Of a stretch of 36,958 nt of DNA, positions 1-36,958 are shown piece by piece. The position numbers and the translations under genes were made by a program. Numbering within the stretch: the first letter of the stretch is position 1; each line of letters opens with the position of its first letter. The notes below the pieces were generated by a model. It saw nothing but the letters and a program-made list of their open reading frames with translations. It was not told the origin of the DNA and made no database searches. The stretch is from an uncultured Alphaproteobacteria bacterium (GTDB lineage Bacteria; Pseudomonadota; Alphaproteobacteria; Rs-D84): positions 1-36,958 of the forward strand of contig CALCEG010000006.1 in NCBI GenBank assembly GCA_937900435.1. The letters run 5' to 3'.

Positions 1-33
1 TGGCGCGGGCGATGGTTCCACAACCTTTAATTT
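1..33 (+). repeat. IR-L: left 33-bp inverted repeat of the putative invertible tail-fibre segment (also present as 36904-36936)
   Basis: TGGCGCGGGCGATGGTTCCACAACCTTTAATTT is the exact reverse complement of 701-733. The match extends to 38 bp with one mismatch. It encodes GAGDGSTTFNL of the tail-collar motif. Confidence 0.95.
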
Positions 34-55
34 ACCGAATAAATCCCCAGAAAGA
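1..55. repeat. Window-end overlap, copy 1 (identical to 36904-36958); seam of a circular assembly of about 36,903 bp
   Basis: The 55-mer tggcgcgggcgatggttccacaacctttaatttaccgaataaatccccagaaaga is at both window ends. It lies inside one uninterrupted reading frame (tail fibre), so it behaves as a k-mer-sized assembly overlap, not a biological terminal repeat. Confidence 0.95.
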
Positions 56-430
56 ACAATTATCGAAACACAAGAGCCAACAGCAGAAAACAATTATACT
101 TGGTATCGTTTGTATAGTGATGGTTGGGTTGAACAAGGTGGTATACAAACAGGCGTAGGAAGTTATGGAAGAGTAGCTATAATATTACCGGTCACAATGG
201 TAGATAATAACTATCAAGTGTTTGCCGGTATGCGAGATTTGGGGAATAGTTGGTATACAAATAACTCAAATTTTGTATCGCTTGCAGGCGGAACCGATGT
301 CGCAGGAACGGTGTCCGATGCCTCGGCAACAGGCTTTCAAGTTCAAAAGCAATCGCTTCATACTTGGTATGTATGCGGAAAATCAGCACGCGGTGCTTCA
401 CAACAGGGGATTATTTGTATTAAATATTAG
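2..430 (+). CDS. Tail fibre, 3' part (continuation of 35561..36958 across the seam): end of the collar motif plus the currently expressed tip V1
   Basis: The frame of bases 2,5,8... is open from the window start to TAG 428-430 and is in phase with the ORF that runs off the window end. The tip contains Y-x-x-Y-S-D-G-W-V-E-Q-G-G ... P-V-T-M ... T-G-F ... W-Y-V-C-G-K, resembling common phage fibre C-terminal tip domains. Confidence 0.9.
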   Translation, partial: GAGDGSTTFNLPNKSPERTIIETQEPTAENNYTWYRLYSDGWVEQGGIQTGVGSYGRVAIILPVTMVDNNYQVFAGMRDLGNSWYTNNSNFVSLAGGTDVAGTVSDASATGFQVQKQSLHTWYVCGKSARGASQQGIICIKY

Positions 431-700
431 TATTTGATACATACGATAGCCTGTGCACCTGTTGCTTGGGTTAAATCGACATATAAATTAGATGGGTAGT
501 AATAGTTTCCCGGTTCTGCAACAGTGCCACCAATTCCATAAACTTTTGTCGAACCATAAACAGCCAATAACGTTTTGCTTGGCGCGCCCCCATTGTTTGC
601 TTTCAACATATGTAATGGCTCTCGAACGCCAGTAAATGTATCGTTCGAGCTAGTTTTAACCGCTGCTATTGTTCCAAGCGGTAAAACAGATTGTGTCGGC
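34..700. other. Putative invertible segment (667 bp) carrying two convergent tail-fibre tips, V1 (+) and V2 (-)
   Basis: Bounded by the perfect IRs 1-33 and 701-733. Both IR copies are in frame with a downstream tip-coding segment. The two tips meet stop-to-stop at 427-430. Confidence 0.6.
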
Positions 701-733
701 AAATTAAAGGTTGTGGAACCATCGCCCGCGCCA
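427..733 (-). other. Silent alternative tail-fibre tip cassette V2 (no start codon, RBS or promoter of its own)
   Basis: The minus-strand frame reads GAGDGSTTFNLPTQSVLPLG...AQAIVCIKY-stop, starting exactly at IR-R. The 61 codons upstream in the track ORF (to 915) are AT-rich junk and overlap the start of gene 907 on the other strand. Confidence 0.75.
701..733 (-). repeat. IR-R: right 33-bp inverted repeat of the putative invertible segment
   Basis: aaattaaaggttgtggaaccatcgcccgcgcca is the reverse complement of bases 1-33. Confidence 0.95.
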
Positions 734-906
734 ACTACAAAAAAACTATTGATTTTTCTACTGTTATTATAAATAATATAAATGTTAAAAAAGGATTTTT
801 TTATGTTATTTGAAAAAACTAAACTTTTCGTAAAAACGACACTTGTAAAATCGCAAGCGTTGTTTGTAAAACAGCCCCAAATAACAAAATAACAAAAGAG
901 GTCAAT

Positions 907-7631: not shown

Positions 7632-10163
7632 ATGACGCTAAAAAGAAAAATTATTACTTGTTCAAAGGGTCAAATATCGCCTGAGTTGATAGAACGAACC
7701 GATATAAATATTTTAGATAAATCAGGTCAAAAGATATTAAATTATTACAATTCTAAATACGGCGCGTTAAAATCCGCCCCTGGAACTAAATTGACTGTTG
7801 CTTGGACGGGTATAAAAAAGATTAAATTACAAAAAATAAAACTGGCAAACTTAAAAGAGGGTTTTATTGCTTTCAATGGAACAGACCAGACAATATCAGT
7901 TTATAATAACCAAGCCGAATTGTTGTCAAATATTTTAAGCGTAAATTGGTTAACTGAATCTAATGTTGAAAATGTTATTTTGGCACAAAACCAAGATTTG
8001 ATTTTGGTTGCAACTGGAAACACCCCAATAATACAAATAAATATTGACAATCTATCTGCAATAACAGCAGAAGTGTTTTCGATTGCAATGTCAAATATAA
8101 TGAAAGCATCGAATATCACAATTCCAGGGTTAAATCCAATTGTATTTCGTATGGGTAATGCAGGATTGCCCGCAGACCCCGCAAGCGTAGGTCTAGGCGT
8201 TGGGAGTTTAGTTTATCCAAACTCTGGAACAGGAACACCAGGCACATCGTTTCCTTGGGCTGTGCAAAGATTAGACCAAATTGGAAGTTCGGCAGAGTGG
8301 AATATCACAAGCGTATCCATCAATAATGCTGGAACCGATTATGTTGACGGCGATATTGTGGAACTTGATAACGGTGCACAATTCGAATATAACAACGGTT
8401 CATTGACAATTGTAGATTCCACAGCGATTTATTATACAGACCCAGCAGGAACAAATCTTGCGGTTAGTGGCGGAAGTGGGACTGGTATGACTGTTGATAT
8501 TACCAGTGCAAACACACAAAATATATGGACGCCAGTAAATTATACGGCACAAACAGACGATGAAATCCAAGATTTATTCGATAATACTTTTTGGATATAT
8601 TCGGGTTCTGGGTGGAGTCGCCCATCATCAAACCAAGATGTCGAATACAATACAAAGTGGTATAATTCTGCAACAAGCGGGGTTATAAAAATCATAGGAC
8701 AAAATAACGGAGTTTTGTTTTCTGTAACCGCCCCTGCTGGACTTGACCCAACAAATTATGCGAAAAGTATATTATTAGGGGTAAATTTTGATGGTCTTGA
8801 CGCAATTGGGATTATACAGATTCAAGCAATCAATGGGACTGTATTAGGACAAACTTATAGTGTGACGAGTATTGACGGTTTAACACTCGTTTCGTTTGAT
8901 AAAACTTATACAAACAGTTCACCAGCACAAGGCTTTAAGATAGAATTTTCGGCTCAACCTGTGTTTTCTGGGGATTTTCCTTTCACTGCATCAAATCCAA
9001 CAGAACAAAACAATTACCCGACATCAATCCTATTTTATCAACAACGCCTGATTATCGGGGGAACAACCTATAATCCGTCCCAAATTGTATTTTCGGAGGT
9101 TGGGGTATATAACTCTTTCAAAGATGAATACTTAAACAATTCGGGATTTCAATTGGTTATCGGTTCAACAGAAAAAGAACAGATTAAACGAATCTTATTA
9201 AACCAAGGTATTCAAATATTCACTTCGAATAATGAATGGATTATGAACGACCAAGCAATAACTCGTAATTCTGGGTTTATTCGTAATTCATCTATGGGGA
9301 CATCTGGTGTAGAACCTGTTATTGCTGCAAACGGAACCACATTATTCGTCCCAAAGAACGGAAAAGGTTTGATTGGATTTACCTATAATTTCCAAACCGC
9401 CAGTTATTCAACACCGTATATTTCATTATTTACTGATTTGTTGGACAATCCTATTGTTGATATATGCCAGAAACGCGGATTAGATTCCACAGACGACACA
9501 CTGTTATATATCTCAATGGCTGATGGTTCGCTGGTAATTGGAAACTATTTGCAAGAACACGAAATTCAAGCGTTTTGTAAAAGAGCAAATCCAAGCGCGG
9601 TATACAAACAAACGATTCAATGCGACGACCAAGTGATTCATTTGGTTGACCGCAATGGAAATACAGGTTTTGAACTGATTGACGAAACAAAATATACCGA
9701 GGCTTCACCTTATTCCTTTACATACAATACGAATACAGGTATAATAACACTGACAACACCGACATCATACAATGGTCAAACATTAAATGTATATGATGGA
9801 AATCACAAATTTATTGGGGCGTATGAAGTTGTCAATGGCACAATCACATTGCCAGCAGATAATAGACCGTCTGTTGTCTTGGAAGTTGGGTATAATATTT
9901 CAAGTGAATTTATCAGCAATCCACAAAATATAAATGCCCAGACAAAGACGATTTATAAATCCATCACAGCGATTCGTTTGGCACTGACAACTGATTCTAA
10001 CCCTGATTATTTGAAAGTCGAAAACAAATCGGCAAGTTGGGTAAAAGACAATTTGGCTGAATATCGTCGTTTAATCCGTCCAACGCGCGACGCAAGATTC
10101 CACATAACGAACGACATATATCCAGTCGAAATACTATCGATAGAAATTGAAATAGAGGCGTAA
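7632..10163 (+). CDS. Tail nozzle / tail tubular protein B-like (T7 gp12-like)
   Basis: The N-terminus SKGQISPELIERTD...GQKILNYYNSKYGALKSAPGT parallels T7 gp12 LKGGISQQPDILRYPDQGSRQVNGWSSETEGLQKRPP. At 843 aa it also fits by size and synteny. Confidence 0.55.
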   Translation: MTLKRKIITCSKGQISPELIERTDINILDKSGQKILNYYNSKYGALKSAPGTKLTVAWTGIKKIKLQKIKLANLKEGFIAFNGTDQTISVYNNQAELLSNILSVNWLTESNVENVILAQNQDLILVATGNTPIIQINIDNLSAITAEVFSIAMSNIMKASNITIPGLNPIVFRMGNAGLPADPASVGLGVGSLVYPNSGTGTPGTSFPWAVQRLDQIGSSAEWNITSVSINNAGTDYVDGDIVELDNGAQFEYNNGSLTIVDSTAIYYTDPAGTNLAVSGGSGTGMTVDITSANTQNIWTPVNYTAQTDDEIQDLFDNTFWIYSGSGWSRPSSNQDVEYNTKWYNSATSGVIKIIGQNNGVLFSVTAPAGLDPTNYAKSILLGVNFDGLDAIGIIQIQAINGTVLGQTYSVTSIDGLTLVSFDKTYTNSSPAQGFKIEFSAQPVFSGDFPFTASNPTEQNNYPTSILFYQQRLIIGGTTYNPSQIVFSEVGVYNSFKDEYLNNSGFQLVIGSTEKEQIKRILLNQGIQIFTSNNEWIMNDQAITRNSGFIRNSSMGTSGVEPVIAANGTTLFVPKNGKGLIGFTYNFQTASYSTPYISLFTDLLDNPIVDICQKRGLDSTDDTLLYISMADGSLVIGNYLQEHEIQAFCKRANPSAVYKQTIQCDDQVIHLVDRNGNTGFELIDETKYTEASPYSFTYNTNTGIITLTTPTSYNGQTLNVYDGNHKFIGAYEVVNGTITLPADNRPSVVLEVGYNISSEFISNPQNINAQTKTIYKSITAIRLALTTDSNPDYLKVENKSASWVKDNLAEYRRLIRPTRDARFHITNDIYPVEILSIEIEIEA

Positions 10164-12717: not shown

Positions 12718-15700
12718 ATGGAAAAAGATTTTTTAACAGACCAAACGCTTTCATTGGACGATGCAATTGCAAAAGCCCAAAGCATAACCCCTGATGATGA
12801 CCCACAATTTGACCCTGTGTTGCCATCACAGTTAAATACTGCCGAAAAAACACCTAGCAAACACACAATGTCTATGGACGATGCGTTAAAAACATATCGT
12901 CTAAAAATGGACTCTATCGAGGGGTTGACCCGAATCGCTAATGGCGATATAACCACGCATTTTTGGGGAAATCTAGCAAAAGGCGCAGGTGATTTTATTC
13001 AAGAAATGAAAATGCAACCCGCCAAATTTGACGGTATGGTTTATCGCGCGTTTAATGGGCACGTCTGGCCGAACATGACAGAGGACGAAGCGGTTCGTTT
13101 AATGGATTCTGCCACTTCTTATGTTGCCAATCAGGAAAGATTACGCAACATTATCGTGCAATCCCAAGGCGGTGCCGATTCGCTTGTGCGTCCGCTTGGC
13201 TCTGGTGCATTGCAAGTATTATCGCTTGGTGTTGTTGGTTTGATGACTGGGGGTGCCGGAATTGGTGCGCTGGCAGGATTACAAGAAGCCAGTGATATAT
13301 CCCAAGAATTTGCAGAAAAAGCAATGGATGAAAACGGCGGAACATTACGCGGTTATGATAATCGCGAGGACGCTTTATACGCTGCATTACACGGTATTAT
13401 ATCTGGTTATATTGAAACTAAACTCGGTGTTGAAAATTTATTTACTGGTGCGGCTAAAAATACATTTGCAAGCAGACTTGGAACACAAATACTAAAATCC
13501 GCTGCGGGCGAGGGTGCCGAGGAATTTTTGCAAGAGGGTTCTAAGTTCTTGTTTGAAAATATGGCAGGTAAGAACAATCGCACAGGCGGGGAGTTCTTAA
13601 AAGACGCTTTAACAAATGCTGTTTATGGTGCCATTTTAGGCGGTGCGTTCAGTATTCCAATGTATCAAGTGAATAAATTACGCATCAACAAAGCATTACG
13701 CGCACAAGGTTTTACTGATGTTGAAGCGGACGAAATGACAAATGACATGATTGATAACGCGAAAAAATCAATCTTGCAAGAAGTCGATACTCGTTCTCAA
13801 TTACGCGAACACTATGGCGAACAATGGACAGGATTAAAAAATAAAGTCATTATCGCTTTGGAAAATGCAGGTTGGAAAGAAACACACCCAGAAATTGACT
13901 TGGAAAAATATGCAGCAGACAACGCGGACGATATCGTAAGACCGTTGTTTAATATGTCAAATAAATTCGGTATTGATACGCGAGATTTGTTGCAATTGGC
14001 AGATATTGATGTTATTGACAATGCGATTTACTTAAAACCAATGAATCTTGGTTCTGCGGAAGTTATTGCAAATAGAATCCGTGAAAAGAAAGAACAGGTC
14101 AAACGGTTAAATATTTTGGCGCGGACTGGTGCAGGCAATCCAGAAACCAAACGCACATTAAATACCCAAATTGAATTGTTGCAAAAATATTATGAAAAAT
14201 TGACTGGCGACAGATTGAATTTGGCGCGCCGGACTCGTGCTGGAAAAGCCAGATTGGATGCAGAAGTTTTAGCCAGTACAGCCCCAGCCGTATCAGAAAC
14301 AATCGCAAATATAGATATATCGCAAATGTCCAGTGGCGAACCAACAACACAAATACGTGAAAAATTGGACGGTCAACCGTTTGTTTATGTTGGCGATAAG
14401 CAATTACCAGTTGAATATAAAGTGGTTCCTATGGACGAAGTTATTGCGTCCCACATAGGTCAAGATATAAATACAAATTATTCATTAAAAGAATTGCAGA
14501 ATCGGGCACAGCGTGGAAGCAGAACCGACGTGTCAATCTTGCAATCCAGGGCAGCAAAGATTCAACCTGAAAACCTTGGAATTGCGTATAACACTCAAAA
14601 CGGCGCACCAGTTGTCAATGACAAAGGCGAAGTGATTGCTGGAAATGGTCGTTATGAAGTATTGCGTATGACGGACGAAAAAGGTCGTGCCAGATACAAT
14701 AAATACCTTGAATCACTTGGTTTAGATTTGACAGGCATAAAAGACCCAATCTTGGTCCGCGTTATGCACAATTTGACACCAGAACAGCAAATCGCAGTTG
14801 CAGACGCAAGTAATGTATCGGCAACGTCTGCATTTGATAACGCCAGCCAAGCCGCACAAGACGCAAAGTTATTGAAAGGCACAACAGGCGTAACGGATTT
14901 CTTAAATAAGATTCCAATCGAATCACGCCAGGGTTTATTTTTGGCAAATGACCGCGTAAATAAAGTTGCTTTGGACCGCAGATATAATGACGCTTTAATG
15001 ATGTGGTTGTTGAATAATGATACCGAATTATACGAGGAATTGTATTTGATGGGTGGAATCACACAAAAGATTCAAAGTGCATTGAATCAGTCAATACCGC
15101 AATTGATGTCATTAGAAAACCAATATCCAGATGTTGGTTTGCGTCAAGATTTAGCAAACGCATTAAAACGGTTGCCACAAATTTCACGTCAAGCAGATTT
15201 TGCATTTGCAATATCACAGGTTGAAATTGACGATGGCAGACCTGATTTATTCAATGAAAACGCTTTGTTGTATGTGTTGAATTTTGGAAAGAATACAAAA
15301 ACCTGGGAGGGAACAGGTGCAGATAGATTACAGGTCGGTTTGACATTACCTGAATTTTTTGACACATACACCCAGAAAGCGACAACCAATCAGGAAAATA
15401 TCGGTCAGGTCGATATGTTTGGACAACCGCTGGCAGTGGAACAAAGCAGAGGGGATTTGCTTGCTGAAACTTTGACGCTGGCATTCCCACGTGAATTTCA
15501 AGATGGTGCAGCAACCAGCCGTGATATGAAAGCGGTATTCTTGACACGTGCCCAGACAGCACCAACACAATTAAATCAGATGGATTTACTGGACACAGTA
15601 CAACCGTCATTATTTGCAGACGATACGTCAACAGCCAGTGCAGTAAGAAACTTGCCTTGGGAAACACCAGTCAACGTATCAAATCCAACATTCTTTAATC

Positions 15701-18700
15701 GTATGCCAGACGCAAACGACATTGAAATCGCACGCAACAATGGCATAGATTCATTCTTGATACTTGATAAAAACGAAGTTCCATCGAAACTTGTATTGCT
15801 GGACGGTTCGGTTGTCGGTCTTAAACCTGGTGCAAAAGTTCCATCAGGAAAAGATTTGTATAAACCATCGACACCACGTCAATTATTCCAAACAGAGGAA
15901 AGAAATCTTGTTGTAACACACGGTATATCGCTGCGTAATCTGCAAAAGGTTCTTGACCTTGGTGGAATGGCTGCACCGTCAATAGCGATTTCAAGTATAA
16001 ATGAACCTTTGACTGATTTTGGCACAATTACATTGGTTGGTAACAAAGATATTATCGACCCAGCCAAATCAGCAAATCGTGTTTATGACCGTGATATTTG
16101 GTCGCCAACAATGCCGTTCAAAACATACCCAAAGGCAAAGACCAAATCGGCAAATGCTTTCCGTGATAAATTCAAAAGCACATTTGTAAAAGCAGACGAC
16201 GAAGCAAACTTGGGCGAAGTGTTATATTATGCACAAAATTCAGCAAGACCAGAACAGGCAGTGCAAAAGTTCGAATGGTCCAGAGGTGCAAAACTATATT
16301 ATGTTGAAAACGTTTTGGGTAAAAAAATAGATATTCCAACACGTTCAGTCAACAAAGACGATATTTGGGGATTGCACCCAGACCAAGAATTTATCGACGC
16401 ATTAAAAGACGTTGATTCGATGGCACCTATGGACGAGGTTATAAAAAAAGTAACCGACGCTGCACGTGCTTTGATAAACCGCACTGATTACGGTAAATAT
16501 ACGAAAGAATACAGGGAAACATTTTTAAGTGATTACCCAGAGGATTATTCAGGTAATTTTAATCGTATGGACAGTATTTTATATCAAACCAAAAAATATG
16601 CACAAAATATAGGCGAAACCGAAGTCGATACAAGTGCACTTGGTAGAATCTTGGACGAATATGCAAACAACGACCAAAATTATCAGAAATGGGCAGAATC
16701 ACAAATTGAGGAAATGTTAGGTTCGCCAAAAGTCGAAGTCGGTAAAAAATTGCTTGACTGGAATCTTGAAAACGTAACAAAAGCAATGTTAAAAGCAGGC
16801 ACAGTGAACGGTCAAAATTCATTGGTTTATGGTGTTGGTAAAGTAATCTCTGCTGGTTCCACAAGATTTACGTCAATCAAAGGTATCAAAGAAGCAGCAA
16901 AGAATCTTAAAACAAAGAAAGACGCAGCCGAATTGACCGACGCACTTGGTGCAAGAATGCAGGATTTCACAAATAAATTTATGTCCGATTCGGATTTCAC
17001 AAATTCGATGGAACAAAAAGAAGCAGCATTTAGGGCTTTGGGAACATTGGCTGCAAGTGGCAATCCAACAAAAGAAAGATTGCAAAGCGTTCTGAACTAT
17101 GAATTGGCAAACAAAGAAAAATACCCAGACGAATTATTGCAAGAGGGTGTCGATATTGCCAAGGCAACCAAAGAAGTTGTGCGTTATTACTTTGAAGCGA
17201 AACCACAACGTTCAGTTTTATTGACCGAGTTTTCTGGTGCAGTAATGCCAGACGATTCGTCATACGACGAAATGGCACAAAAATTAAAAGACCTTGGTTT
17301 GCAAGTTGAACGCACAGACAATTTACAACAAGGTATTCGCAACATTGAAAATTCAGTTGGGGGTGTATTATTCCAGGGACGCAAAGTCAATGGATTTTAT
17401 GACCCAGAACTTGAAGTAATTGTTTTGGGACGCAGTTCTAATACTGGAACATTGCCACACGAAATGTCGCATTACTGGGCAAACACCATATTCAACCTGG
17501 TTAAATCAGGCAAATATAACAATAATCCTGATTTTATGGCACAGGCGATGGGAATGTTTAGAATGTTGGGCGTTGGTATGAACCAAGATACATTGACACG
17601 CGACCAACAAGAAATGTTTGCGTCAATGACCGAATCATATATCTTTGGAATGGCAAGAGTGCCAGAGGGAATAAAATTACCAATGACAGCATTCTTTAAT
17701 TGGGTTCCTGCAAAATACAAATCATTCCAAGACATAGGTTATATCAATTCCGAGGGGAAAGTTATAAACCCTATATTTGATAAATATGCTGTTGAATGGT
17801 TTAATGCGTGGTATGCAAATGGAACATTGCCGTCCATCGACGCTTCGCCTTTAATGATGGAAAATTCAAATGGCGAACAAGATGGTCGTATAATTCCATC
17901 AACAGCAGAAGTTATGAAAACGCGTGAAGCCGAAATGACAGCAGAAGCCGATAGATTAAAACGCGCACGCACAGACCAAACAACCGAAGCAATGGAATCA
18001 ACACCTTTGAGTGAACGCGCCGCAGCCGCAGCCGCCGAGGTTGAAATCGAATCCAAACCAGATAATTTGAAATTGAGTGAACCGCCGGCAGAAAAGAAAA
18101 AGAACATTGTGTCCTATTTGATTCCAGGGCGTGGAACAAACACACGCGAGGGAATGTTCCAAGTAGCGCGCGATTATCTTAAAAAAGAACCAGAACATGC
18201 ACGCGAAATCGCTTTTGGCAATCCTGCACTGGTTCAAAATGATACAGGAGTTGATAGGGCTATCTTGATTCGTGCGTTGATGGAGGAATACAAACAAGGC
18301 GACCCAGAATATGCAGAATTGTATCATAACCTGGCTGAAACAGTATCATTGGCTGGTAAAACCCCAGGTTTATCAAATGATATGAATTTCCAATATTATC
18401 GCGTTGCAATGGACCGTATAAGAAACGGCATGGAAGCAAAAGCAGCGATTAAATATGCAGGCACACGCAACCTAAACAAAGCCAGACGGACATTCAATGC
18501 TGATATTGACGCATTTATACAAGAACACGCGGCAAAGATATTGAATACAGCACCTGATACAGATAAACGCGAAATGCTGATAAAGCAAATGTTAGCAGAG
18601 GCAACCCTTAAATTCGGTGGGGAAACAGCAACCCAATTGAATCAAGAGGATTTGCGTCGTGGTCGCGGTATCAAATCAGGCGAAAGAGAGGTATTTACTG

Positions 18701-20196
18701 AATGGGCAAATCGTGAAATTCGCAAAAAGTTGAAAGCGGAACCTGATATAAATACCATAAATAAAACTATGGAATTATCAGAAAAAGCACAAAAAGCCCT
18801 TAAATCAGTCAATTCAGACGATTTAGCGGAAGCACAAGCAGCAGTAAAACAAATCCGCGAATGGCAAATGTTTGTTGCCGACCAAGATGTACCTGCAACT
18901 TGGTATTCAAAATTGATTGGTTCGTGGTATCCAAAAGCAATGTTGTATAACATCAATACGCATAGCGTGAATATCTTGGGAACGGGTATAAACTATGCTG
19001 TGGTCGAGGCTGCACTCGAAATTCAATATGGGAAAGGGAAAGTATCAAAAAGCGCAGTGGATGCAGAAAAAAAGCGTTTGCGTGCATTATACGATTCTAA
19101 TTTGGTAAGTTTAGCGGGTATGATGGACCCAACAAGCCCAACATTATTACATGGTGAACAATACAATCCACGCGAGGGTAGAGGTTTAGGCGCAAAGGCT
19201 GTAAACTTTTCAATGGATTTATTGGGTAAAGAAGATAACTGGTTCAAGGTCCAAGTATATGTTGATGCATTAAATCGTATTGCCACCGCAGACGCAGCAA
19301 AAACAGGCGAAAGTCCAACAGAATTATTTAGACTTTACAAGCGTTTAGATAATCCAAAAGACAGTCGTGCATACAAAGCGCATCAAGAAGCAGTTGTAAT
19401 AGCCCAGACAGCAGTATTTCAACAGACAGGAGTATTATCAACAGCATTGAAAAAAGGTCGTGATGCTTTGAACAATTTAACTATATTTGGATATAAAACC
19501 GAATTGGGAACATTGTTAGCACCATTTGTCAAAACACCAGCGAACATCGTGGAACAAGGCGCACGTGCAATCGCCGCCCCGATAAGAGTCGCAAATCACG
19601 CAATAAAAAGCGATTGGAAAAATTGGTCTGTTCAAGATACCTTGGATGTTGGGTATTTTGTATTAGGTTGTGCGCTTGGTGCGATTGCTATGATGACGGA
19701 CTATGAGCCGCCCTATGAAGCACCACACAAATACGACCCGAATAAACCTTATGATTCAATAAAAATCTTTGGTGGAGCGTGGATTAAACTTGATACATTT
19801 GGTATCGCGGCGGTTCCAATGCGTGTCATGGCGTCTTTAATGACCGGAAAAGGGCTTGGTGTAGCCGGAACACTGAACGATATACCTTTGGTAGGAGATT
19901 TAGCGGAATCTTATCAACAAGCGGCACAGATAGAACAAGCCCCATACACCAAAGGAACAAGATTTATTGCAAATCTGGGGTATAATCGTATCAATACAGC
20001 AGTTCCAGCAATAGCGCGTTATACTATCGCAGCGATGCACCCAGCGGACATCGGTTTGGAAAATGTGGATTTTGGATTGCCAAAAACAGGCATCGGTCGT
20101 AAGATTAAAAGACAATACGGATTGGACGGTGGCGACACAACCACGAACGATATATTGCGTATATTCTTTAACAGATTGAAGATTGCTGAGGAATAA
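12718..20196 (+). CDS. Giant 2,492-aa virion-associated polyvalent/ejection protein candidate (gp16 position)
   Basis: A single uninterrupted ORF with ATG directly after the upstream stop. It has Gly-rich hydrophobic segments near both ends, a ParB-like GNGR segment, and an HEMSH zincin motif. It is the last gene before the double terminator. Confidence 0.6.
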   Translation: MEKDFLTDQTLSLDDAIAKAQSITPDDDPQFDPVLPSQLNTAEKTPSKHTMSMDDALKTYRLKMDSIEGLTRIANGDITTHFWGNLAKGAGDFIQEMKMQPAKFDGMVYRAFNGHVWPNMTEDEAVRLMDSATSYVANQERLRNIIVQSQGGADSLVRPLGSGALQVLSLGVVGLMTGGAGIGALAGLQEASDISQEFAEKAMDENGGTLRGYDNREDALYAALHGIISGYIETKLGVENLFTGAAKNTFASRLGTQILKSAAGEGAEEFLQEGSKFLFENMAGKNNRTGGEFLKDALTNAVYGAILGGAFSIPMYQVNKLRINKALRAQGFTDVEADEMTNDMIDNAKKSILQEVDTRSQLREHYGEQWTGLKNKVIIALENAGWKETHPEIDLEKYAADNADDIVRPLFNMSNKFGIDTRDLLQLADIDVIDNAIYLKPMNLGSAEVIANRIREKKEQVKRLNILARTGAGNPETKRTLNTQIELLQKYYEKLTGDRLNLARRTRAGKARLDAEVLASTAPAVSETIANIDISQMSSGEPTTQIREKLDGQPFVYVGDKQLPVEYKVVPMDEVIASHIGQDINTNYSLKELQNRAQRGSRTDVSILQSRAAKIQPENLGIAYNTQNGAPVVNDKGEVIAGNGRYEVLRMTDEKGRARYNKYLESLGLDLTGIKDPILVRVMHNLTPEQQIAVADASNVSATSAFDNASQAAQDAKLLKGTTGVTDFLNKIPIESRQGLFLANDRVNKVALDRRYNDALMMWLLNNDTELYEELYLMGGITQKIQSALNQSIPQLMSLENQYPDVGLRQDLANALKRLPQISRQADFAFAISQVEIDDGRPDLFNENALLYVLNFGKNTKTWEGTGADRLQVGLTLPEFFDTYTQKATTNQENIGQVDMFGQPLAVEQSRGDLLAETLTLAFPREFQDGAATSRDMKAVFLTRAQTAPTQLNQMDLLDTVQPSLFADDTSTASAVRNLPWETPVNVSNPTFFNRMPDANDIEIARNNGIDSFLILDKNEVPSKLVLLDGSVVGLKPGAKVPSGKDLYKPSTPRQLFQTEERNLVVTHGISLRNLQKVLDLGGMAAPSIAISSINEPLTDFGTITLVGNKDIIDPAKSANRVYDRDIWSPTMPFKTYPKAKTKSANAFRDKFKSTFVKADDEANLGEVLYYAQNSARPEQAVQKFEWSRGAKLYYVENVLGKKIDIPTRSVNKDDIWGLHPDQEFIDALKDVDSMAPMDEVIKKVTDAARALINRTDYGKYTKEYRETFLSDYPEDYSGNFNRMDSILYQTKKYAQNIGETEVDTSALGRILDEYANNDQNYQKWAESQIEEMLGSPKVEVGKKLLDWNLENVTKAMLKAGTVNGQNSLVYGVGKVISAGSTRFTSIKGIKEAAKNLKTKKDAAELTDALGARMQDFTNKFMSDSDFTNSMEQKEAAFRALGTLAASGNPTKERLQSVLNYELANKEKYPDELLQEGVDIAKATKEVVRYYFEAKPQRSVLLTEFSGAVMPDDSSYDEMAQKLKDLGLQVERTDNLQQGIRNIENSVGGVLFQGRKVNGFYDPELEVIVLGRSSNTGTLPHEMSHYWANTIFNLVKSGKYNNNPDFMAQAMGMFRMLGVGMNQDTLTRDQQEMFASMTESYIFGMARVPEGIKLPMTAFFNWVPAKYKSFQDIGYINSEGKVINPIFDKYAVEWFNAWYANGTLPSIDASPLMMENSNGEQDGRIIPSTAEVMKTREAEMTAEADRLKRARTDQTTEAMESTPLSERAAAAAAEVEIESKPDNLKLSEPPAEKKKNIVSYLIPGRGTNTREGMFQVARDYLKKEPEHAREIAFGNPALVQNDTGVDRAILIRALMEEYKQGDPEYAELYHNLAETVSLAGKTPGLSNDMNFQYYRVAMDRIRNGMEAKAAIKYAGTRNLNKARRTFNADIDAFIQEHAAKILNTAPDTDKREMLIKQMLAEATLKFGGETATQLNQEDLRRGRGIKSGEREVFTEWANREIRKKLKAEPDINTINKTMELSEKAQKALKSVNSDDLAEAQAAVKQIREWQMFVADQDVPATWYSKLIGSWYPKAMLYNINTHSVNILGTGINYAVVEAALEIQYGKGKVSKSAVDAEKKRLRALYDSNLVSLAGMMDPTSPTLLHGEQYNPREGRGLGAKAVNFSMDLLGKEDNWFKVQVYVDALNRIATADAAKTGESPTELFRLYKRLDNPKDSRAYKAHQEAVVIAQTAVFQQTGVLSTALKKGRDALNNLTIFGYKTELGTLLAPFVKTPANIVEQGARAIAAPIRVANHAIKSDWKNWSVQDTLDVGYFVLGCALGAIAMMTDYEPPYEAPHKYDPNKPYDSIKIFGGAWIKLDTFGIAAVPMRVMASLMTGKGLGVAGTLNDIPLVGDLAESYQQAAQIEQAPYTKGTRFIANLGYNRINTAVPAIARYTIAAMHPADIGLENVDFGLPKTGIGRKIKRQYGLDGGDTTTNDILRIFFNRLKIAEE
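14411..14870 (+). other. ParB/sulfiredoxin-like segment inside the giant protein (tentative)
   Basis: VVPMDEVIASH...PENLGIAYNTQNGAPVVNDKGEVIAGNGRYEVLR resembles the ParB N-terminal-domain pattern (hydrophobic-x-G-x-x-R after a PxxL...P-hydrophobic-hydrophobic segment). Confidence 0.3.
17377..17650 (+). other. HExxH zincin-like metallopeptidase signature inside the giant protein
   Basis: NGFYDPELEVIVLGRSSNTGTLPHEMSHYW (HEMSH at 17458-17472), followed by QEMFASMTESYIFG, which supplies a possible third ligand Glu. Confidence 0.4.
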
Positions 20197-20201
20197 TTTA
20201 T

Positions 20202-20226
20202 AATCGCCAAGGTTGGCGATTTTCAA
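20202..20226 (+). terminator. Late-operon terminator 1
   Basis: Stem AATCGCCAA / TTGGCGATT around GG, followed by TTTTC. Confidence 0.55.
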
Positions 20227-20287
20227 GGAATCCGCGGGGTTATTGTCGCCAAGGTTGGCGTTTTTCCAGAATTCCGCGGGTTTCAGG
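20204..20287 (+). repeat. Tandem 42-bp repeat (2 copies); each copy is a hairpin, a T-run and a CCGCGG palindrome
   Basis: TCGCCAAGGTTGGCGATTTTCAAGGAATCCGCGGGGTTATTG versus TCGCCAAGGTTGGCGTTTTTCCAGAATTCCGCGGGTTTCAGG, about 33/42 identical. Confidence 0.85.
20247..20265 (+). terminator. Late-operon terminator 2
   Basis: CGCCAA-GG-TTGGCG followed by TTTTT. Confidence 0.7.
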
Positions 20288-20349
20288 TTGACAAAATAAG
20301 CAAAACCAAATACACCAAGGGATTTAGAGTGTGTTTTTGGTTTTGTCAA
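20288..20349. repeat. Large hairpin / inverted repeat with two alternative registers
   Basis: CAAAACCAAA (20301-20310) pairs with TTTGGTTTTG (20336-20345). Alternatively, TTGACAAAA (20288-20296) pairs with TTTTGTCAA (20341-20349). Confidence 0.7.
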
Positions 20350-20353
20350 CATA

Positions 20354-20400
20354 AAATTGCTTTAATTTGATATTATGACGATATTATATTAAAGCAATTT
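20354..20400. repeat. 13-bp perfect inverted repeat with a 21-bp spacer that holds GATATTAT twice
   Basis: AAATTGCTTTAAT (20354-20366) and ATTAAAGCAATTT (20388-20400); the spacer is ttgatattatgacgatattat. Confidence 0.85.
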
Positions 20401-20473
20401 AGGCGGAAAGTAGGCGAGATTCCAGAAGCCGAAATCACGATAAAGGGCTTTAACATCAGTAATCGACGGATTA

Positions 20474-20518
20474 CCGCAATCGCAAAATGAACGGACACGA
20501 AGCCGATTGGGTTTTTTT
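20474..20518 (+). terminator. Weak terminator-like element ending a GC-richer island
   Basis: CC(G)CAATCG pairs with CGATTGGG (8 bp with one bulge, 21-nt loop), followed by a T7 run (20512-20518). Confidence 0.3.
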
Positions 20519-20625
20519 ATACTATAAGAATCAGGAATAAAAATCATTATTATCAAAAATAAGGTCTGGACATATTGGAAATCTGGGAAAAGTATATTTT
20601 TGATAGAAATAATGGCATAAAACCG

Positions 20626-20673
20626 TATGGAAAGATATATGGAATGTATGATGGATTCAAATATGGAATAAGT
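20626..20673. repeat. Four tandem 12-bp iteron-like repeats (core ATGGA at exact 12-bp phase)
   Basis: The units are tatggaaagata, tatggaatgtat, gatggattcaaa and tatggaataagt. ATGGA starts at 20627, 20639, 20651 and 20663. Confidence 0.8.
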
Positions 20674-20678
20674 CGTCA

Positions 20679-20741
20679 ATATGTTAAAAAAACTATAATT
20701 ATTTAACATATCGCAAAAATAACTATAAAGTTTTAACATAT
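20679..20741. repeat. TTTAACATAT motif three times (one inverted), including a 21-bp direct repeat 30 bp apart
   Basis: ATATGTTAAA is at 20679-20688. AACTATAATTATTTAACATAT (20691-20711) and AACTATAAAGTTTTAACATAT (20721-20741) are 18/21 identical. Confidence 0.8.
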
Positions 20742-23287: not shown

Positions 23288-23557
23288 ATGGAAAATGCAC
23301 CTGATTTAGTAATGACAAACCCAACCGCTGGATTGGACAGCCAACAATTATTATCGTTCGTTCAAAGAATCGAAAAATTGAACGAGGACAAAGCCGCCAT
23401 CGAAGCTGATTTGAAAGAGGTTTTAGACGAGGCAAAGTTCGCTGGATTCGATAAAAAATACGTCAAAGAGATTGTTAAATTGCGTAAATTGGATTCGGAC
23501 GAATTGGACGAACAGGACGAACTGATGGCTATGTATAGACGTGCGGCAGGTTTATAA
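23288..23557 (+). CDS. gapR: GapR-like protein (DUF2312/UPF0335 family)
   Basis: QQLLSFVQRIEKLNEDKAAIEADLKEVLDEAKFAGFDKKYVKEIVKLRKLD..ELMAMYRRAAGL aligns along its length with Caulobacter GapR ([50 protein letters not shown]...ILDLYLSAIG). Confidence 0.85.
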   Translation: MENAPDLVMTNPTAGLDSQQLLSFVQRIEKLNEDKAAIEADLKEVLDEAKFAGFDKKYVKEIVKLRKLDSDELDEQDELMAMYRRAAGL

Positions 23558-24001: not shown

Positions 24002-24311
24002 ACTTAAATGTCCGTTCTGTCAGCAGAAATTACAATATGATGACCTGCTTTGCAATTGCATAAATGAACATTGTGAAGAAAGTTTTGATATGGTCGGGAC
24101 AGAAATGCTTTGGCAAAAAGTTATAGACCTAAAACAAGAAATAGACAGCACACGCAAGGCATTAGATGTCGCTGTTGATGCGATTAAAAACGCAACAGAA
24201 TATCTGGGCAACCAAGAACCACTTGTTGATGTTATGGCAATGAATCTACACACAGATTTATCAAAAGCACTAGAACAAATAACAGCACTAGAACAAAAGG
24301 AAGAACAATGA
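23994..24311 (+). CDS. Zn-ribbon/coiled-coil protein, paralog 1 of 3
   Basis: ATG 23994 follows AAAGGTGG (the track start is GTG 23985). It carries CPFCQQKL...CNCINEHC...MVGTEMLWQKV and ends in EQITALEQK. Confidence 0.75.
   Translation: MSKLKCPFCQQKLQYDDLLCNCINEHCEESFDMVGTEMLWQKVIDLKQEIDSTRKALDVAVDAIKNATEYLGNQEPLVDVMAMNLHTDLSKALEQITALEQKEEQ
24270..24301 (+). repeat. 32-bp perfect direct repeat, copy 1 (3' end of paralog 1)
   Basis: CTAGAACAAATAACAGCACTAGAACAAAAGGA is identical to 24724-24755. Confidence 0.95.
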
Positions 24312-24484
24312 TAACAGATAAAGACAGAGTTATAAAAGTTAGTTTTTATTATCAACCAACAGATGATATATTTGATGCTGATGATATGCGTAATGCTTTA
24401 TATAACTTTTTAGATAGTTTTAAGATGTATGATTTACAAGTCAAAGACACAACGATAGAACACGAACAAAAGGATGTAAAATGA
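24308..24484 (+). CDS. Hypothetical 58-aa acidic protein (below the track cutoff)
   Basis: ATGA overlaps at both ends. It reads MITDKDRVIKVSFYYQPTDDIFDADDMRNALYNFLDSFKMYDLQVKDTTIEHEQKDVK. Confidence 0.55.
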   Translation: MITDKDRVIKVSFYYQPTDDIFDADDMRNALYNFLDSFKMYDLQVKDTTIEHEQKDVK

Positions 24485-24759
24485 CAGATAAATTACTTTG
24501 CCCGTTTTGCAACAAACCATTACAGCCAACACATCGTATAGAAGATGAGTATTTTTGTGAAAATTATGATTGCCCCCAGACAAGTCTTACTTGGGTTGGC
24601 ACAAGTTCATTATGGAAAGCATTTGCAGACACAAAGAAGAAACTTGATGTCGCTATTGATGCGTTGAAAATAGCAAGAGATTGTTGCAGTGATTATAGTA
24701 TTGAGTGTTTAGCACACGAAACCCTAGAACAAATAACAGCACTAGAACAAAAGGATTAA
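24481..24759 (+). CDS. Zn-ribbon/coiled-coil protein, paralog 2 of 3
   Basis: CPFCNKPL...CENYDCPQ...WVGTSSLWKAF...LDVAIDALK...EQITALEQK. Confidence 0.8.
   Translation: MTDKLLCPFCNKPLQPTHRIEDEYFCENYDCPQTSLTWVGTSSLWKAFADTKKKLDVAIDALKIARDCCSDYSIECLAHETLEQITALEQKD
24724..24755 (+). repeat. 32-bp perfect direct repeat, copy 2 (3' end of paralog 2)
   Basis: Identical to 24270-24301. Confidence 0.95.
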
Positions 24760-24906
24760 ATGATGTGGTGGAAATTAAAACAATTATTTTGTTTGCACAA
24801 ATGGGTATTTTTTACCGAATATGACGAATCAAATAATCGTAATTCGCATCATTATACAATTTGGCAATGCGACAAATGCGACAAAGTAAAAATTACAAGA
24901 AAGTAG
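24760..24906 (+). CDS. Small Cys-rich protein, C-x-H-K-W ... C-x-x-C type (DUF1660-like), 48 aa
   Basis: MMWWKLKQLFCLHKWVFF...WQCDKCDKV. The same pattern occurs in 29815-30177. Confidence 0.5.
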   Translation: MMWWKLKQLFCLHKWVFFTEYDESNNRNSHHYTIWQCDKCDKVKITRK

Positions 24907-24946
24907 TAGAACAAAAGGAATAAAACAACAACCAAAAGGAAAGGAA

Positions 24947-26431: not shown

Positions 26432-27178
26432 ATGAAAAGTGAAAATCGCCATTTCTGGCAACTTCGCCAACATTTCTACGGGGACGCAGGAACGTTTGAT
26501 ATACAAACAAATCCTGAATGGTTAGCGGTCCGTCGTGGTAAATTCACAGCGTCCGAGGCAGCCGATATGTTGTCCAGTTCACGCAGCAAAGACGAAGTTC
26601 TTGGTAAAACAGCCAAGGCAGTATGTCGTCGTGTATTGACAGACAGATTTACAAGTTTTGAACGTCCGGCAGACAAAGACGCTTGGGCATTAAAAGATTC
26701 TGTTGCTCGTGGATTGCAGTTAGAACCACGTGCTCGTGAATTATACGAATCACAAACAGGATTCGAAGTAAAAGAATGTGGATTTGTGGAACATTGCAGC
26801 GGTTGGTTTGGTTTTTCGCCAGATGGAATTGTTGAGGACGAAAATATGGGAATTGAAATCAAATGCCCAGAACCAGACAACGCACAACGCCTGATTGAGG
26901 AAGTTGGCGACCCAGACCACTTAAAACAAATTGCCTTTGCAATGTGGGTTGATGGTCTTGATTGTTATGATTATGTTGTATATTCGCCTGAATTATGTCA
27001 AGGTTTAGAACTGGACGACCAAGTGTTTATATTCAGTTTTTCAAGGGACGAATTACAGGAATATATAGATGAAATCGACAAACGTGCACCGATATTACTG
27101 GAATACGTAAATAAATCTGTATCGAACCTTAAAAAGATTGGTAAAAAACGTCAATTTATACATGCACGGAGTAAATAA
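26432..27178 (+). CDS. YqaJ-type (lambda Exo-like, PD-(D/E)xK) recombination exonuclease
   Basis: WLAVRRGKFTASEA ... GLQLEPRARELY ... FSPDGIVEDENMGIEIKCP matches the YqaJ viral recombinase pattern. Confidence 0.8.
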   Translation: MKSENRHFWQLRQHFYGDAGTFDIQTNPEWLAVRRGKFTASEAADMLSSSRSKDEVLGKTAKAVCRRVLTDRFTSFERPADKDAWALKDSVARGLQLEPRARELYESQTGFEVKECGFVEHCSGWFGFSPDGIVEDENMGIEIKCPEPDNAQRLIEEVGDPDHLKQIAFAMWVDGLDCYDYVVYSPELCQGLELDDQVFIFSFSRDELQEYIDEIDKRAPILLEYVNKSVSNLKKIGKKRQFIHARSK

Positions 27179-27179
27179 T

Positions 27180-35560: not shown

Positions 35561-36958
35561 ATGAATCTAAATTTCTTATGTTGTATCGGTGCAGAATTAA
35601 AAAATAGCACACAACAAACAACACGTATGACCCAAGTTTATTTGTATCGTGCATTTGAAAGTGAAACAATCGCCGATATGTTGTCGACTGGATTTTTCAA
35701 TCAAGCCCTTGGAATTATACGGCAAGACGATTTACTGTTATTATATAGTCCAAATGAAACGAATCCACGTTGGGTTTATGCTCGTGTATCAAGCGCGACG
35801 CGTGATGGCATTGAAATTTCAAAAGTCGATGTCCAAGCACAAGATATATCAGTTGATACAACAGGTTATTCCAATTTATCAGGAAATAATTTACAGGAAA
35901 TATTAAATAATCTTGATACAACCATAACCACAATAAACGATACCTTTGTCCGCAAAGACGGAACTTCGATAATGTCCGCCCCATTAAAATTTATTGCGGG
36001 CTCTTTTCGCGGGGCTGTTGGTCCATATTTGAACGGTGTGGAATTTTATAATGTTGGTAGTGATGGTGCTTTGGGTTCTGCTATTGCTAGATTGACATCA
36101 ACAAATGGTTTAACGCCAAACACTGACAATGTTTTAGATATAGGTTCTGCAACCAAAAGATTCAAAGATTTATATATTGCACGTGTTATCACAGGTGTAA
36201 TCAATAACGGTTATGATATTGCAGTTCCAGCGACAGCGCAACCCGAAACATTGGCATTAAAGAGTGAAGTGGATTTAGCGGCTAATTCTGGTCGTATGAT
36301 TACAGACGAGGGCGTATGGTTTGCCAAAATGTATGCAGCAAGCACAGTGCCAACTGGTGCCGAATATGATGGCAAAAACTATGCGGACTTTTCACAGGTT
36401 GACGGTGATAATAATCCAGTAATTAAAATATACACAGGTGCTAGCGGGGCTTGGACACTGACAGAAACAATCACACCGCCAGCGGATTATGACGGTTATG
36501 TTCCAATTACAAGTAAAATATGGGACATTATAGACCAAACAGGTCAGCAAGGCGGACGTGTATTGTGGAACCATCAAACAAAAACATTTACACCGTATCC
36601 GCAGATTATATCGCTTGATAATCAACAGATTACAAACAGTTCTTTTTCTGGCGGAACAATTACAAGTTCAACATTTGATGGAGAAGCGACTTTAAGCGGT
36701 GTATCAACAGCACCAACGCCAACTGCAAGTTCGCCGAATAACCAAATAGCAAATAAAGAATATGTTGCACAAATAGCAGTGCCAGCAGGAATGATAGCAC
36801 CATTTGCGGGTTCAAGCGCACCTGCCGGCTGGTTGGTTTGCGATGGTTCGGCGGTATCAAGAACTGAATATGCGGACTTGTTTGCGGCAATTGGAACAAC
36901 TTATGGCGCGGGCGATGGTTCCACAACCTTTAATTTACCGAATAAATCCCCAGAAAGA
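35561..36958 (+). CDS. Tail fibre, N-terminal and constant part (open at the window end; continues at base 56; 590 aa on the circle)
   Basis: ATG 35561 follows AAAGGA. There are 466 codons with no stop up to the window end (under-called in the ORF track because no stop is reached). Near the end it carries the Phage_Tail_Collar-type motif PAGWLVCDGSAVSRTEYADLFAAIGTTYGAGDGSTTFNLP. Confidence 0.9.
   Translation, partial: MNLNFLCCIGAELKNSTQQTTRMTQVYLYRAFESETIADMLSTGFFNQALGIIRQDDLLLLYSPNETNPRWVYARVSSATRDGIEISKVDVQAQDISVDTTGYSNLSGNNLQEILNNLDTTITTINDTFVRKDGTSIMSAPLKFIAGSFRGAVGPYLNGVEFYNVGSDGALGSAIARLTSTNGLTPNTDNVLDIGSATKRFKDLYIARVITGVINNGYDIAVPATAQPETLALKSEVDLAANSGRMITDEGVWFAKMYAASTVPTGAEYDGKNYADFSQVDGDNNPVIKIYTGASGAWTLTETITPPADYDGYVPITSKIWDIIDQTGQQGGRVLWNHQTKTFTPYPQIISLDNQQITNSSFSGGTITSSTFDGEATLSGVSTAPTPTASSPNNQIANKEYVAQIAVPAGMIAPFAGSSAPAGWLVCDGSAVSRTEYADLFAAIGTTYGAGDGSTTFNLPNKSPER
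36904..36958. repeat. Window-end overlap, copy 2 (identical to 1-55); includes the IR-L sequence at 36904-36936
   Basis: See the 1-55 feature. Confidence 0.95.

Follow-up and report, generated by a model that had tools for sequence, protein, structure and literature searches.

Tail-fibre inversion switches are, to our knowledge, the textbook case of host-range bet-hedging by temperate phages and are always described with an invertase of their own. In Min of p15B, the C segment of P1 (Cin), the G segment of Mu (Gin) and the P segment of e14 (Pin), promoterless alternative fibre 3' ends lie in opposite orientations, and short crossover sites stand inside the open reading frame (ORF), at the boundary between its constant and variable parts. 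Both features are found in the 36,958-nt contig CALCEG010000006.1, which was analysed as a whole (the window) and is the genome of a podovirus-like phage. Its tail-fibre gene runs across the ends of the contig into positions 1 to 733 where, between the arms of an inverted repeat (IR), one tip, V1, is fused to the constant part of the fibre and a second, V2, lies silent on the opposite strand. Together with the fibre 3' end, this region is very probably a two-cassette, invertase-less derivative of a serine-invertase tail-fibre shufflon. The module is a reduced member of a widespread collar-site shufflon family, in which the final codons of the Collar motif (TFNLP) contain the crossover sites.

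A preliminary description of this locus, made from the sequence alone, likened it to the Mu G, P1 C and e14 P switches. The comparison holds for the tip inversion switch as such, but the closest analogue is the multi-site Min shufflon of p15B and not the two-site G segment of Mu. As in Min, relatives of the window module have multiple cassettes, with three to four sites; as in Min, Cin, Gin and Pin alike, such relatives (contigs L025, L043, L044 and L046) have a small serine invertase, with Gin as the best PDB match. The Mu repeats are 34 bp long and the window repeat 33 nt. Unlike all four systems, the window has no invertase; unlike the U/U' arrangements of Mu and P1, its segment neither contains nor adjoins a gene for a tail-fibre assembly chaperone; and its fibre, in contrast to those of Mu, P1, e14 and p15B, is of the Collar type (PF07484), with the site in the TFNLP codons. 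The invertase of the relatives is only ~33% identical to Cin and Pin, and the window core bears no evident resemblance, by eye, to gix, hix or cix. Unlike the temperate-myovirus carriers of such switches, the window is a phage of ~37 kb with a T7-type portal and no integrase. The R64 shufflon (Rci, PilV) likewise shuffles alternative C-terminal tips by inversion between short in-ORF repeats; it uses a tyrosine recombinase and 19-bp sfx sites. Unlike R64, neither the window nor the switch regions of its relatives have a Phage_integrase match, and the relatives use a serine recombinase.

Prophage invertases are documented to act in trans, on a tail-fibre or flagellin segment of a different element in the same cell: PinQ (Qin) flips the P segment of e14, PinE the G segment of Mu and Fin (Fels-2) the H segment (PMC12529663). 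In each case the target segment also has an adjacent invertase gene of its own, whereas the window genome has none, and for it we infer action in trans. The enhancer of the PinQ, PinE and Fin targets comes with their own adjacent invertase gene. A survey of programmed inversions in bacterial genomes and prophages (Milman et al. 2023, PMC9881135) reports that tail-fibre, phage tail and tail-collar genes are recurrent targets, with an asymmetric truncated partner coding sequence, and that some invertible regions have no nearby recombinase gene. The survey is not known to describe a complete free phage with a switch but no recombinase anywhere, or the present collar-site shufflon family of ruminant-gut phages.

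The constant part of the fibre comprises residues 1-459 and ends in GAGDGSTTFNL; the 131-aa V1 follows, for a fibre of 590 aa (35561..36903, then 1..430). Residues 410-461 match the Pfam Collar domain (PF07484; E = 2.5e-23, 82.2 bits against a cut-off of 24). As previously described, positions 1-33 and 701-733 form a perfect inverted repeat of 33 nt, with an extended match of 45 nt at 91%; in 30 shuffled versions of the genome, perfect inverted repeats reached 14-22 nt at most. Translation bears out that GAGDGSTTFNL is coded in frame by both arms, with the same 11 codons leading in frame into V2 on the minus strand. The identity of the arms is not a by-product of coding, because L007, the sole fetched collar gene coding for the identical peptide, differs at ~9 of 33 bases, and the GVGDGSTTFNL collar genes of L001 and L009 likewise use different codons. 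Perfect identity suggests gene conversion between the arms. Exact scans of IMG/VR with the 33-mer found no match, and a scan with the 23-nt IR core found one match in a JGI metagenome (L024) and none in IMG/VR or the GTDB genomes.

On the minus strand of the window, V2 has no start codon (ATG), no ribosome-binding site (RBS) and no promoter-like site upstream, in agreement with the earlier account of V1 as fused and V2 as silent; the 89 aa that it counted after LP are the same as the 90 aa counted here after FNL. Its forecast for the alternative isomer is likewise reproduced by translation, in that inversion of 34-700 would yield a 549-aa fibre in place of the 590-aa one. Both tips end in (I/V)CIKY, and their junction folds into a symmetric hairpin (dG -19.2 kcal/mol, z = -3); the same type of convergent junction is present in L021, L025 and L027. 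The hairpin is likely to serve as a terminator and a hot spot for cassette exchange, and would be unchanged by inversion. A diversity-generating retroelement was considered and rejected, as no reverse-transcriptase family is among the Pfam matches of the window and the only long fibre repeat (33-45 nt) is inverted, not direct.

V2 has no relatives in IMG/VR. A protein search with V2 alone returned two matches, P0121 and P0122, both orphan ORFs; these and the homologue in L024 have the same ends as V2. By an exhaustive profile search, V2-type tips are found at the C-termini of full-length fibres of several backbones (P0245, P0248, P0249, P0251, P0252 and P0267). The N-terminus of P0248 (MFNKSNFCH...) is of the same type as that of the podovirus-family fibres P0058 and P0113, and the V2-type tip is the only one in its locus, L051. 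Because they are fused to full-length fibres on several backbones, we take V2-type tips to be functional receptor-binding modules. The body of V1 is similar to the C-terminal modules of P0001, P0113 and P0124-127, and V1 has 87.8% nucleotide identity over 417 nt with the silent V1-like cassette of contigs L025-L028.

The assembled window genome encodes no recognizable recombinase. In a Pfam scan at E <= 0.01, none of 49 sequences (two minus-strand ORFs and the V2 frame in addition to the predicted proteins) matched Resolvase, Phage_integrase, transposase or reverse transcriptase, and there was no match to the Phage_tail_APC or Caudo_TAP chaperones. A hidden Markov model (HMM) of 17 members of the cognate invertase family, run unfiltered on 476 stop-to-stop ORFs of at least 40 aa from the circularized genome, reached E = 0.05 at best, on a 41-aa fragment (positive control, 8e-109), and tblastn of the cognate invertase and the L025 chaperone against the window gave nothing at E <= 10. 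The preliminary statement that no recombinase can be recognized has thus passed a Pfam scan, tblastn and the HMM check on short ORFs that it called for. A shufflon driven by a tyrosine recombinase was rejected, as no predicted window protein matches Phage_integrase (E <= 0.01). The description of the switch as an orphan is right for the window genome but not for the system: the switch belongs, in reduced form, to a widespread family of shufflons that have an invertase.

That family was reached through a search with the collar and V1, which led to P0123, a 106-aa ORF 85% identical to V1, on contigs L025-L028. The shufflon there has four sites. At site D, a minus-strand fibre constant part ending GAGDGSTTFNLP joins a fourth tip type, on which a silent V1-like cassette, starting at site C, converges. 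A Phage_tail_APC chaperone gene comes after the V1-like cassette, followed by a PF00239 recombinase gene, and a third silent tip, starting at site B, converges on a silent V2-like cassette that starts at site A. The sequence (G/C)AAC(A/G)TTTAATTTACC is common to the four sites, and each silent cassette is immediately preceded by a stop codon. The recombinase, 198 aa from MIYCYLRVSSLAQ, belongs to PF00239 and has the motif YxRVSSxxQ. Its best match among solved structures is the Gin DNA invertase (4m6f, 3e-13), and gamma-delta resolvase is also matched; its best matches among deposited phages are the invertase of Bacteroides phage B124-14 (44% identity) and P1 Cin and SJ46 Pin (~33%). The first 119 bases of L027 exactly repeat the end of its own constant part, up to and including the site core; this is then followed, in frame, by a stretch identical at 330 of 330 positions to the V2-like cassette of L025. 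Because L027 has this assembled recombinant junction, constant-V2-like molecules existed in its sample, and inversion does take place in this relative. In L025, the last codons and the stop of the invertase gene (...WNV-stop) lie inside crossover site B (2616-2634); recombination there would therefore alter the C-terminus of the invertase.

Relatives of this invertase, at 53-70% identity, are found on three IMG/VR contigs and 13 GTDB genome contigs, while a fourteenth genome locus reaches only 36%. Most of the 13 GTDB contigs are from ruminant-gut metagenome-assembled genomes (MAGs) labelled Alphaproteobacteria or Ca. Enterousia, and four of the 13 are contigs of 63-595 kb; the relatives in the ruminant-gut MAGs are 53-63% identical, some of them on contigs of 76-595 kb. 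The carriers of such shufflons, with 2-4 cassettes, are phages and prophages of ruminant-gut samples, some binned with Alphaproteobacteria. Among the further shufflons, L043 has four tips; L044 has three mapped cassette tips and four listed sites; L046, a contig of 36.8 kb, has its invertase 3 kb from the fibre; and L047 and L048 have four and three sites, respectively. A PF00239-type small serine recombinase is present in L025-27, L043, L044 and L046, and a chaperone adjoins the cassettes in L025-28, L047 and L049. In L047 (198-800) and L048 (796-1061), cassettes stand in tandem in the same orientation, a new site coming right after the previous stop (...CIKY-stop, then AACATTTAATTTACC); such direct site repeats would permit deletion as well as inversion. 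The collar and V1 query also matches three separate places in the genome of Burkholderia phage Mica (GenBank MT701586 / NC_054148), which may have an analogous multi-tip layout.

The crossover sites tie the window to these elements. The core (G/C)AAC-N-TTTAATTT-(A/G)-CC is derived from thirteen sites, which belong to four elements with an invertase. The window has exactly two such sites, and L044 uses AACCTTTAATTTACC and AACCTTTAATTTGCC, which are exactly the two 15-mers of the window. Within the invertase-bearing shufflons, perfect identity between two sites covers 11-19 nt, except in one pair, of similar tips, where it covers 42 nt and extends to the right; left of TTTAATTT, expressed and silent sites share 4-5 nt, and no pair exceeds 11. 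The two window sites, by contrast, share 25 nt left of TTTAATTT, into the constant part, and 33 nt in all. The V2-side site carries a stub of the constant region, which measures 33 nt in the window and 20 nt in L021 and so differs in its end point. Such a stub would be neither created nor maintained by the invertase reaction; it fits the capture, in inverted orientation, of a fibre 3' end or a shufflon fragment. A look by eye for dyad symmetry of the gix/hix type in the crossover site found nothing convincing. The window and the invertase-bearing elements have in common only the collar/tip modules and a distant YqaJ, and are therefore different phages. Since V1 and the ends of V2 are 88-94% identical in nucleotides between them, the two phage types exchange DNA and hence meet in the same cells.

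To place the module among phages related by backbone, we turn to the fibre family. The N-terminal ~400 aa of the fibre are common to a large family of uncultured phages of ~36-37 kb with variable tips (hits P0001-P0120); ENA and Logan assemblies are the source of most of them. When 25 kb of the window was compared with GenBank phages by megablast, no match was found, and exact-protein look-ups of the two window genes that flank the switch returned no record. Collar-type relatives L001-L009 have a single forward tip, after which a chaperone comes in some of them, and lack a reversed cassette; no other relative fetched by the fibre searches (L001-L020) has a second collar motif in reverse. L010, the closest backbone relative (87-90% amino acid identity in terminase and capsid), has a different single tip. 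With single tips in L010 and L001-L009, the switch is therefore a recent acquisition of the window sub-lineage.

Sister contigs L021-L024 were found by the protein search with V2 alone and a DNA scan for the repeat core, with L022 and L023 coming from two samples. They answer the earlier suggestion that related phages be searched for the same IR: L022, L023 and L024 have the identical 33-mer, a V2-type cassette in reverse and the same outer flank of ~50 nt (47-49 identical positions of 52), while in L021 just 20 nt of the repeat are present and the flank differs. L021 reads across the palindromic junction into the reverse complement of the V1 end (90.6% identity) and, because it is an independent assembly of another sample, confirms the direct adjacency of V2 to V1. 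Degradation of V2 in related genomes, which the preliminary description had named as speaking against a switch, is not seen; V2 is intact in all four lineages, its four alleles having their first 9 residues in common and no frameshift or stop. The complete alleles (window, L021 and L022) also have the last 17 residues in common, with middles of ~41% identity. At these conserved ends, all nucleotide differences from the window are synonymous (4-6 over 9 codons and 4-5 over 17 codons). The flank and IR are 94-100% identical between lineages, but the N-terminal end of V2 only 78-85%. Synonymous-only differences were dropped as proof of selection in place, as the flank and IR are far more alike than V2 and import is an alternative. 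L022 and L023, from different samples, end at the same base (1295 and 1197, respectively), at the V2-type stop codon of the palindromic CIKY-stop junction; the shared end point suggests that neighbouring cassettes vary by strain, the junction being a hot spot for cassette exchange or deletion.

The case for flipping in the window phage itself is circumstantial: V2 is intact in all four lineages, V2-type tips are expressed on other fibres, and, a strong clue, the assembly breaks at the edge of the repeat. Positions 1-55 equal 36904-36958, a terminal overlap of 55 nt that makes the assembly circular, with a true length of 36,903 nt, and that is consistent with de Bruijn assembly at k = 55. The first base of the contig is also the first base of the left arm, IR-L, and the chance that a random break would fall at this outer edge is about 1e-4. 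Because it is shorter than k = 55, the 33-nt repeat alone cannot branch the assembly graph. Positions 1-55 would, however, be a k = 55 vertex common to a constant-IR-V1 and a flank-IR-V1 path, which would branch only with reads from inverted molecules.

Inversion of 34-700 would swap V1 for V2, replacing the 590-aa fibre by one of 549 aa with a different receptor-binding end, and would leave the downstream promoter and the symmetric terminator hairpin untouched. Because the window phage encodes no recombinase, the enzyme would most likely come in trans. We put forward, with somewhat less than even confidence, that a small serine invertase from a resident prophage or a co-infecting shufflon phage does the flipping. 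It would recognize the window sites, which are identical to sites that such enzymes evidently use, and the progeny would then have a host range that hinges on what other elements were resident in the previous host; homologous exchange over the unusually long 33-nt repeat may contribute. Of the three options raised in the preliminary description (a host or prophage invertase in trans, an unrecognized phage enzyme, or homology-driven exchange), the first is the best supported, a cognate invertase and identical 15-nt cores both being found in other phages and prophages of similar samples. As for origin, a podovirus sub-lineage would have taken the module from invertase-bearing phages infecting the same cells. 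Its invertase, chaperone and remaining cassettes would either never have been taken up or have been lost, plausibly by recombination at palindromic CIKY-stop junctions. The whole account, of a reduced shufflon derivative with this origin and this in-trans mechanism, seems to us evenly poised between right and wrong.

A number of observations weigh against an active switch of this kind, and they shade into the case for other explanations. Live inversion, as envisaged beforehand, is not in evidence in the window phage: the V2-type cassette is silent in five of five contigs of the lineage (the window and L021, L022, L023 and L024), the predicted constant+V2 fibre was not found among the 120 best matches in a protein database of 5.8 billion clusters, and the search with V2 alone gave just two orphans and no fusion. 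Invertases of the Gin/Hin type depend on a recombinational enhancer in cis that normally lies within the invertase gene, a gene that is absent from the window. The repeat reaches 25 nt leftward into the constant part, as it does not between the expressed and silent sites of invertase-bearing shufflons; being unneeded by an invertase, this extension points to another origin or mechanism; and the V2 alleles may have been imported from a functional shufflon pool and not selected in place. Much of this would be expected if V2 were a silent relic, left over when part of a shufflon, or a second fibre 3' end, was captured horizontally, with no inversion and with V2 either recent or repeatedly overwritten. 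Such a reading accommodates the lack of a recombinase, the uniform silence of V2 and the missing fusion near that of the window, as well as the single forward tips of L010 and the Collar-type L001-L009, the near-identical flank and IR beside divergent V2 ends, which fits allele import, and the constant stub truncated at 33 nt in the window and 20 nt in L021. It sits poorly with a V2 ORF free of frameshifts and stops in four alleles, with a 33-mer identical between the arms and across the window, L022 and L024, with two intact site cores and with a contig break exactly at the IR outer edge, as expected with inverted molecules among the reads; we regard it as rather unlikely.

The break coincides equally well with inversion that is free of a recombinase and driven by homology, the 33-nt repeat (45 nt at 91%) being long enough for exchange at low frequency through the RecE/YqaJ-type exonuclease of the phage or host RecA, which would give a standing minority of V2-tipped virions. 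An invertase would not maintain a repeat reaching 25 nt left of the core, against 4-5 nt in the invertase-bearing shufflons; the perfect arms, while L007 differs at ~9 of 33 bases, suggest ongoing gene conversion; and the phage does have a recombination exonuclease, the sole recombination enzyme recognized in its genome and a candidate helper of such exchange. Yet 33 bp barely reaches the length that RecA- or Red-type recombination requires, PHROGs identified no annealase in the window to partner the exonuclease, the extension could be a stub left from capture, and the site cores are conserved exactly as in invertase-using systems, so that this explanation, too, is an unlikely one. An assembly artefact, in which the assembler took a shortcut through repeated sites or junctions of a larger shufflon that includes an invertase, deserves mention because shufflons visibly break or mis-join assemblies (the chimeric end of L027, and L022 and L023 ending at the junction) and because the contig break lies within the switch. 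We hold it to be very improbable, as the same V2-to-V1 adjacency is found in the independent L021, the shared junction sequence of ~26 nt is below k = 55, and 36.9 kb agrees with the many family members of 36-37 kb. Gene callers annotated the orphan ORFs P0121 and P0122 with fortuitous starts, which might suggest that V2 is made separately as a small protein from the minus strand. Such independent expression was rejected and is scarcely credible: there is no ATG, RBS or minus-strand promoter-like site, a terminator-like hairpin lies upstream, the sequence upstream of the IR is a plus-strand promoter region that differs between lineages, and the product would start with only the last Collar strand. 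Returning to a working switch, the prospects are evenly divided that either (a) the hijack of a prophage invertase or (b) a repeat extended to 33 nt for a homology-driven switch is functional in nature; that (b) alone applies, with a site-specific switch turned recombinase-free, is doubtful.

Beyond the switch (Table 1), Pfam recognizes a T7-type head-tail connector (portal), a capsid protein and a lysozyme in the window. An integrase was not found in this ~37-kb phage (Pfam scan, Phage_integrase, E <= 0.01), which is probably non-temperate. A GapR-like DNA-binding protein gene lies at 23288-23557 (PF10073, 2.6e-23); we take GapR-like proteins to be typical of the Alphaproteobacteria and Ca. 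Enterousia clade and its phages. This gene and the invertase relatives in Alphaproteobacteria and Ca. Enterousia MAGs hint at a ruminant-gut alphaproteobacterium as the host. The TerL gene (31132-33561) encodes 809 aa (PHROG terminase matches, 2e-44) with a LAGLIDADG domain at residues 273-335. Residues 1-63 and 381-809 align nearly contiguously with the uninterrupted TerL of L010 (81-87% identity), and ~317 aa of the window TerL appear from this alignment to be an intein.

Directly downstream of the switch, a 192-aa protein (907-1485) has 44-54% amino acid identity to the N-terminal part of the L025-L028 shufflon fibre, with aligned stretches at 5408-5570 of L025 and 4285-4537 of L026; the single long fibre of those contigs corresponds to two separate genes in the window. 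The L010 copy of the 192-aa protein gene looks frameshifted (8384-8971). Beside the exonuclease gene are an HNH/NUMOD homing-endonuclease gene (25847-26425) and a second ORF with weak HNH matches (27138-27647). The latter overlaps the end of the exonuclease gene and in L013 its homologue also adjoins the exonuclease homologue, the position expected for an annealase. One fifth of the genome is taken up by a 2492-aa ORF (12718-20196) with ddrB-like ParB (residues 561-683) and PBECR5 nuclease (1060-1267) domains; it appears polyvalent and possibly injected, and its counterpart in L007 is 34% conserved. Immediately after this giant gene, the region 20198-20400 holds two tandem 42-nt repeats with the hairpin ATCGCCAAGGTTGGCGAT, then a 20-nt inverted repeat (20354-20400), and is followed by a 116-aa gene (20389-20739), among the very few plausible minus-strand genes of the window; the region resembles a terminator or operator at a late/early gene boundary. 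A motif of ~20-37 nt (AGCACTAGAACAAAAGGA...; GAACAAAAGGATGTAAAATGA) is repeated ahead of several small early genes (24265-24924, also 27734, 28216 and 29222) and may be a shared translation-initiation or regulatory element.

Table 1. Features of the switch and associated elements in window coordinates
Feature	Position	Strand	Remarks
Tail-fibre gene, constant part	35561..36903, on across the assembly junction into 1-33	+	from translation
IR-L	1..33	+	= 36904-36936; encodes the collar-motif end (Y)GAGDGSTTFNL
V1-side crossover core AACCTTTAATTTACC	22..36	+	fits the 13-site consensus; identical to the L044 site at 14784
V1, expressed tip	34..430	+	131 aa after FNL; stop TAG 428-430
Palindromic convergent junction	411..447	both	...CIKY-stop from each tip; stops overlap at 427-430
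V2, silent tip	427..700	-	90 aa after FNL; stop TAA = reverse complement of 427-429
V2-side crossover core AACCTTTAATTTGCC	698..712	-	identical to the L044 sites at 16045 and 19025
IR-R	701..733	-	33-mer identical in sister contigs L022, L023 and L024
Conserved outer flank	734..785	+	outside the invertible segment; 47-49/52 nt identical in L022 and L024
Sigma70-like promoter-like site	749-777	+	in the outer flank, for downstream plus-strand genes
Terminator-like hairpin upstream of V2	839..860 (860->839)	-	argues against read-through expression of V2
YqaJ/RecE-like recombination exonuclease	26432..27178	+	Pfam YqaJ 7.6e-16; PHROG exonuclease 1e-27
Assembly overlap	36904..36958	+	= 1-55; comprises IR-L plus the first 22 nt of V1
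Predicted constant-IR-V2 junction of the inverted isomer			GGAACAACTTA + IR + GCCGACACAATCTG
Predicted flank-IR-V1 junction of the inverted isomer			TTTTTTTGTAGT + IR + ACCGAATAAATCC

The window presents a complete phage genome that has the substrate of a switch but no enzyme, while the matching enzyme and sites are found in other phages of similar samples. From the analysis emerges a shufflon family that is widespread in phages of the ruminant gut, which probably infect Alphaproteobacteria; its sites are at the collar (TFNLP), and their 15-nt core lends itself to searches. If the switch is inactive, the locus is a snapshot of receptor-binding modules moving between unrelated phages, with shufflon fragments captured at a conserved Collar motif. 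If it is active, this would matter for the prediction of host range from genomes and for the reading of 'orphan' invertons in metagenomes, and either (a) or (b) would amount to a mode of programmed tip variation not described for phages before. Under (a), the receptor specificity of the progeny would depend on the lysogenic status of the previous host, and with an active switch a phage's host range can depend on the recombinases of other mobile elements in the cell, a three-way interaction.

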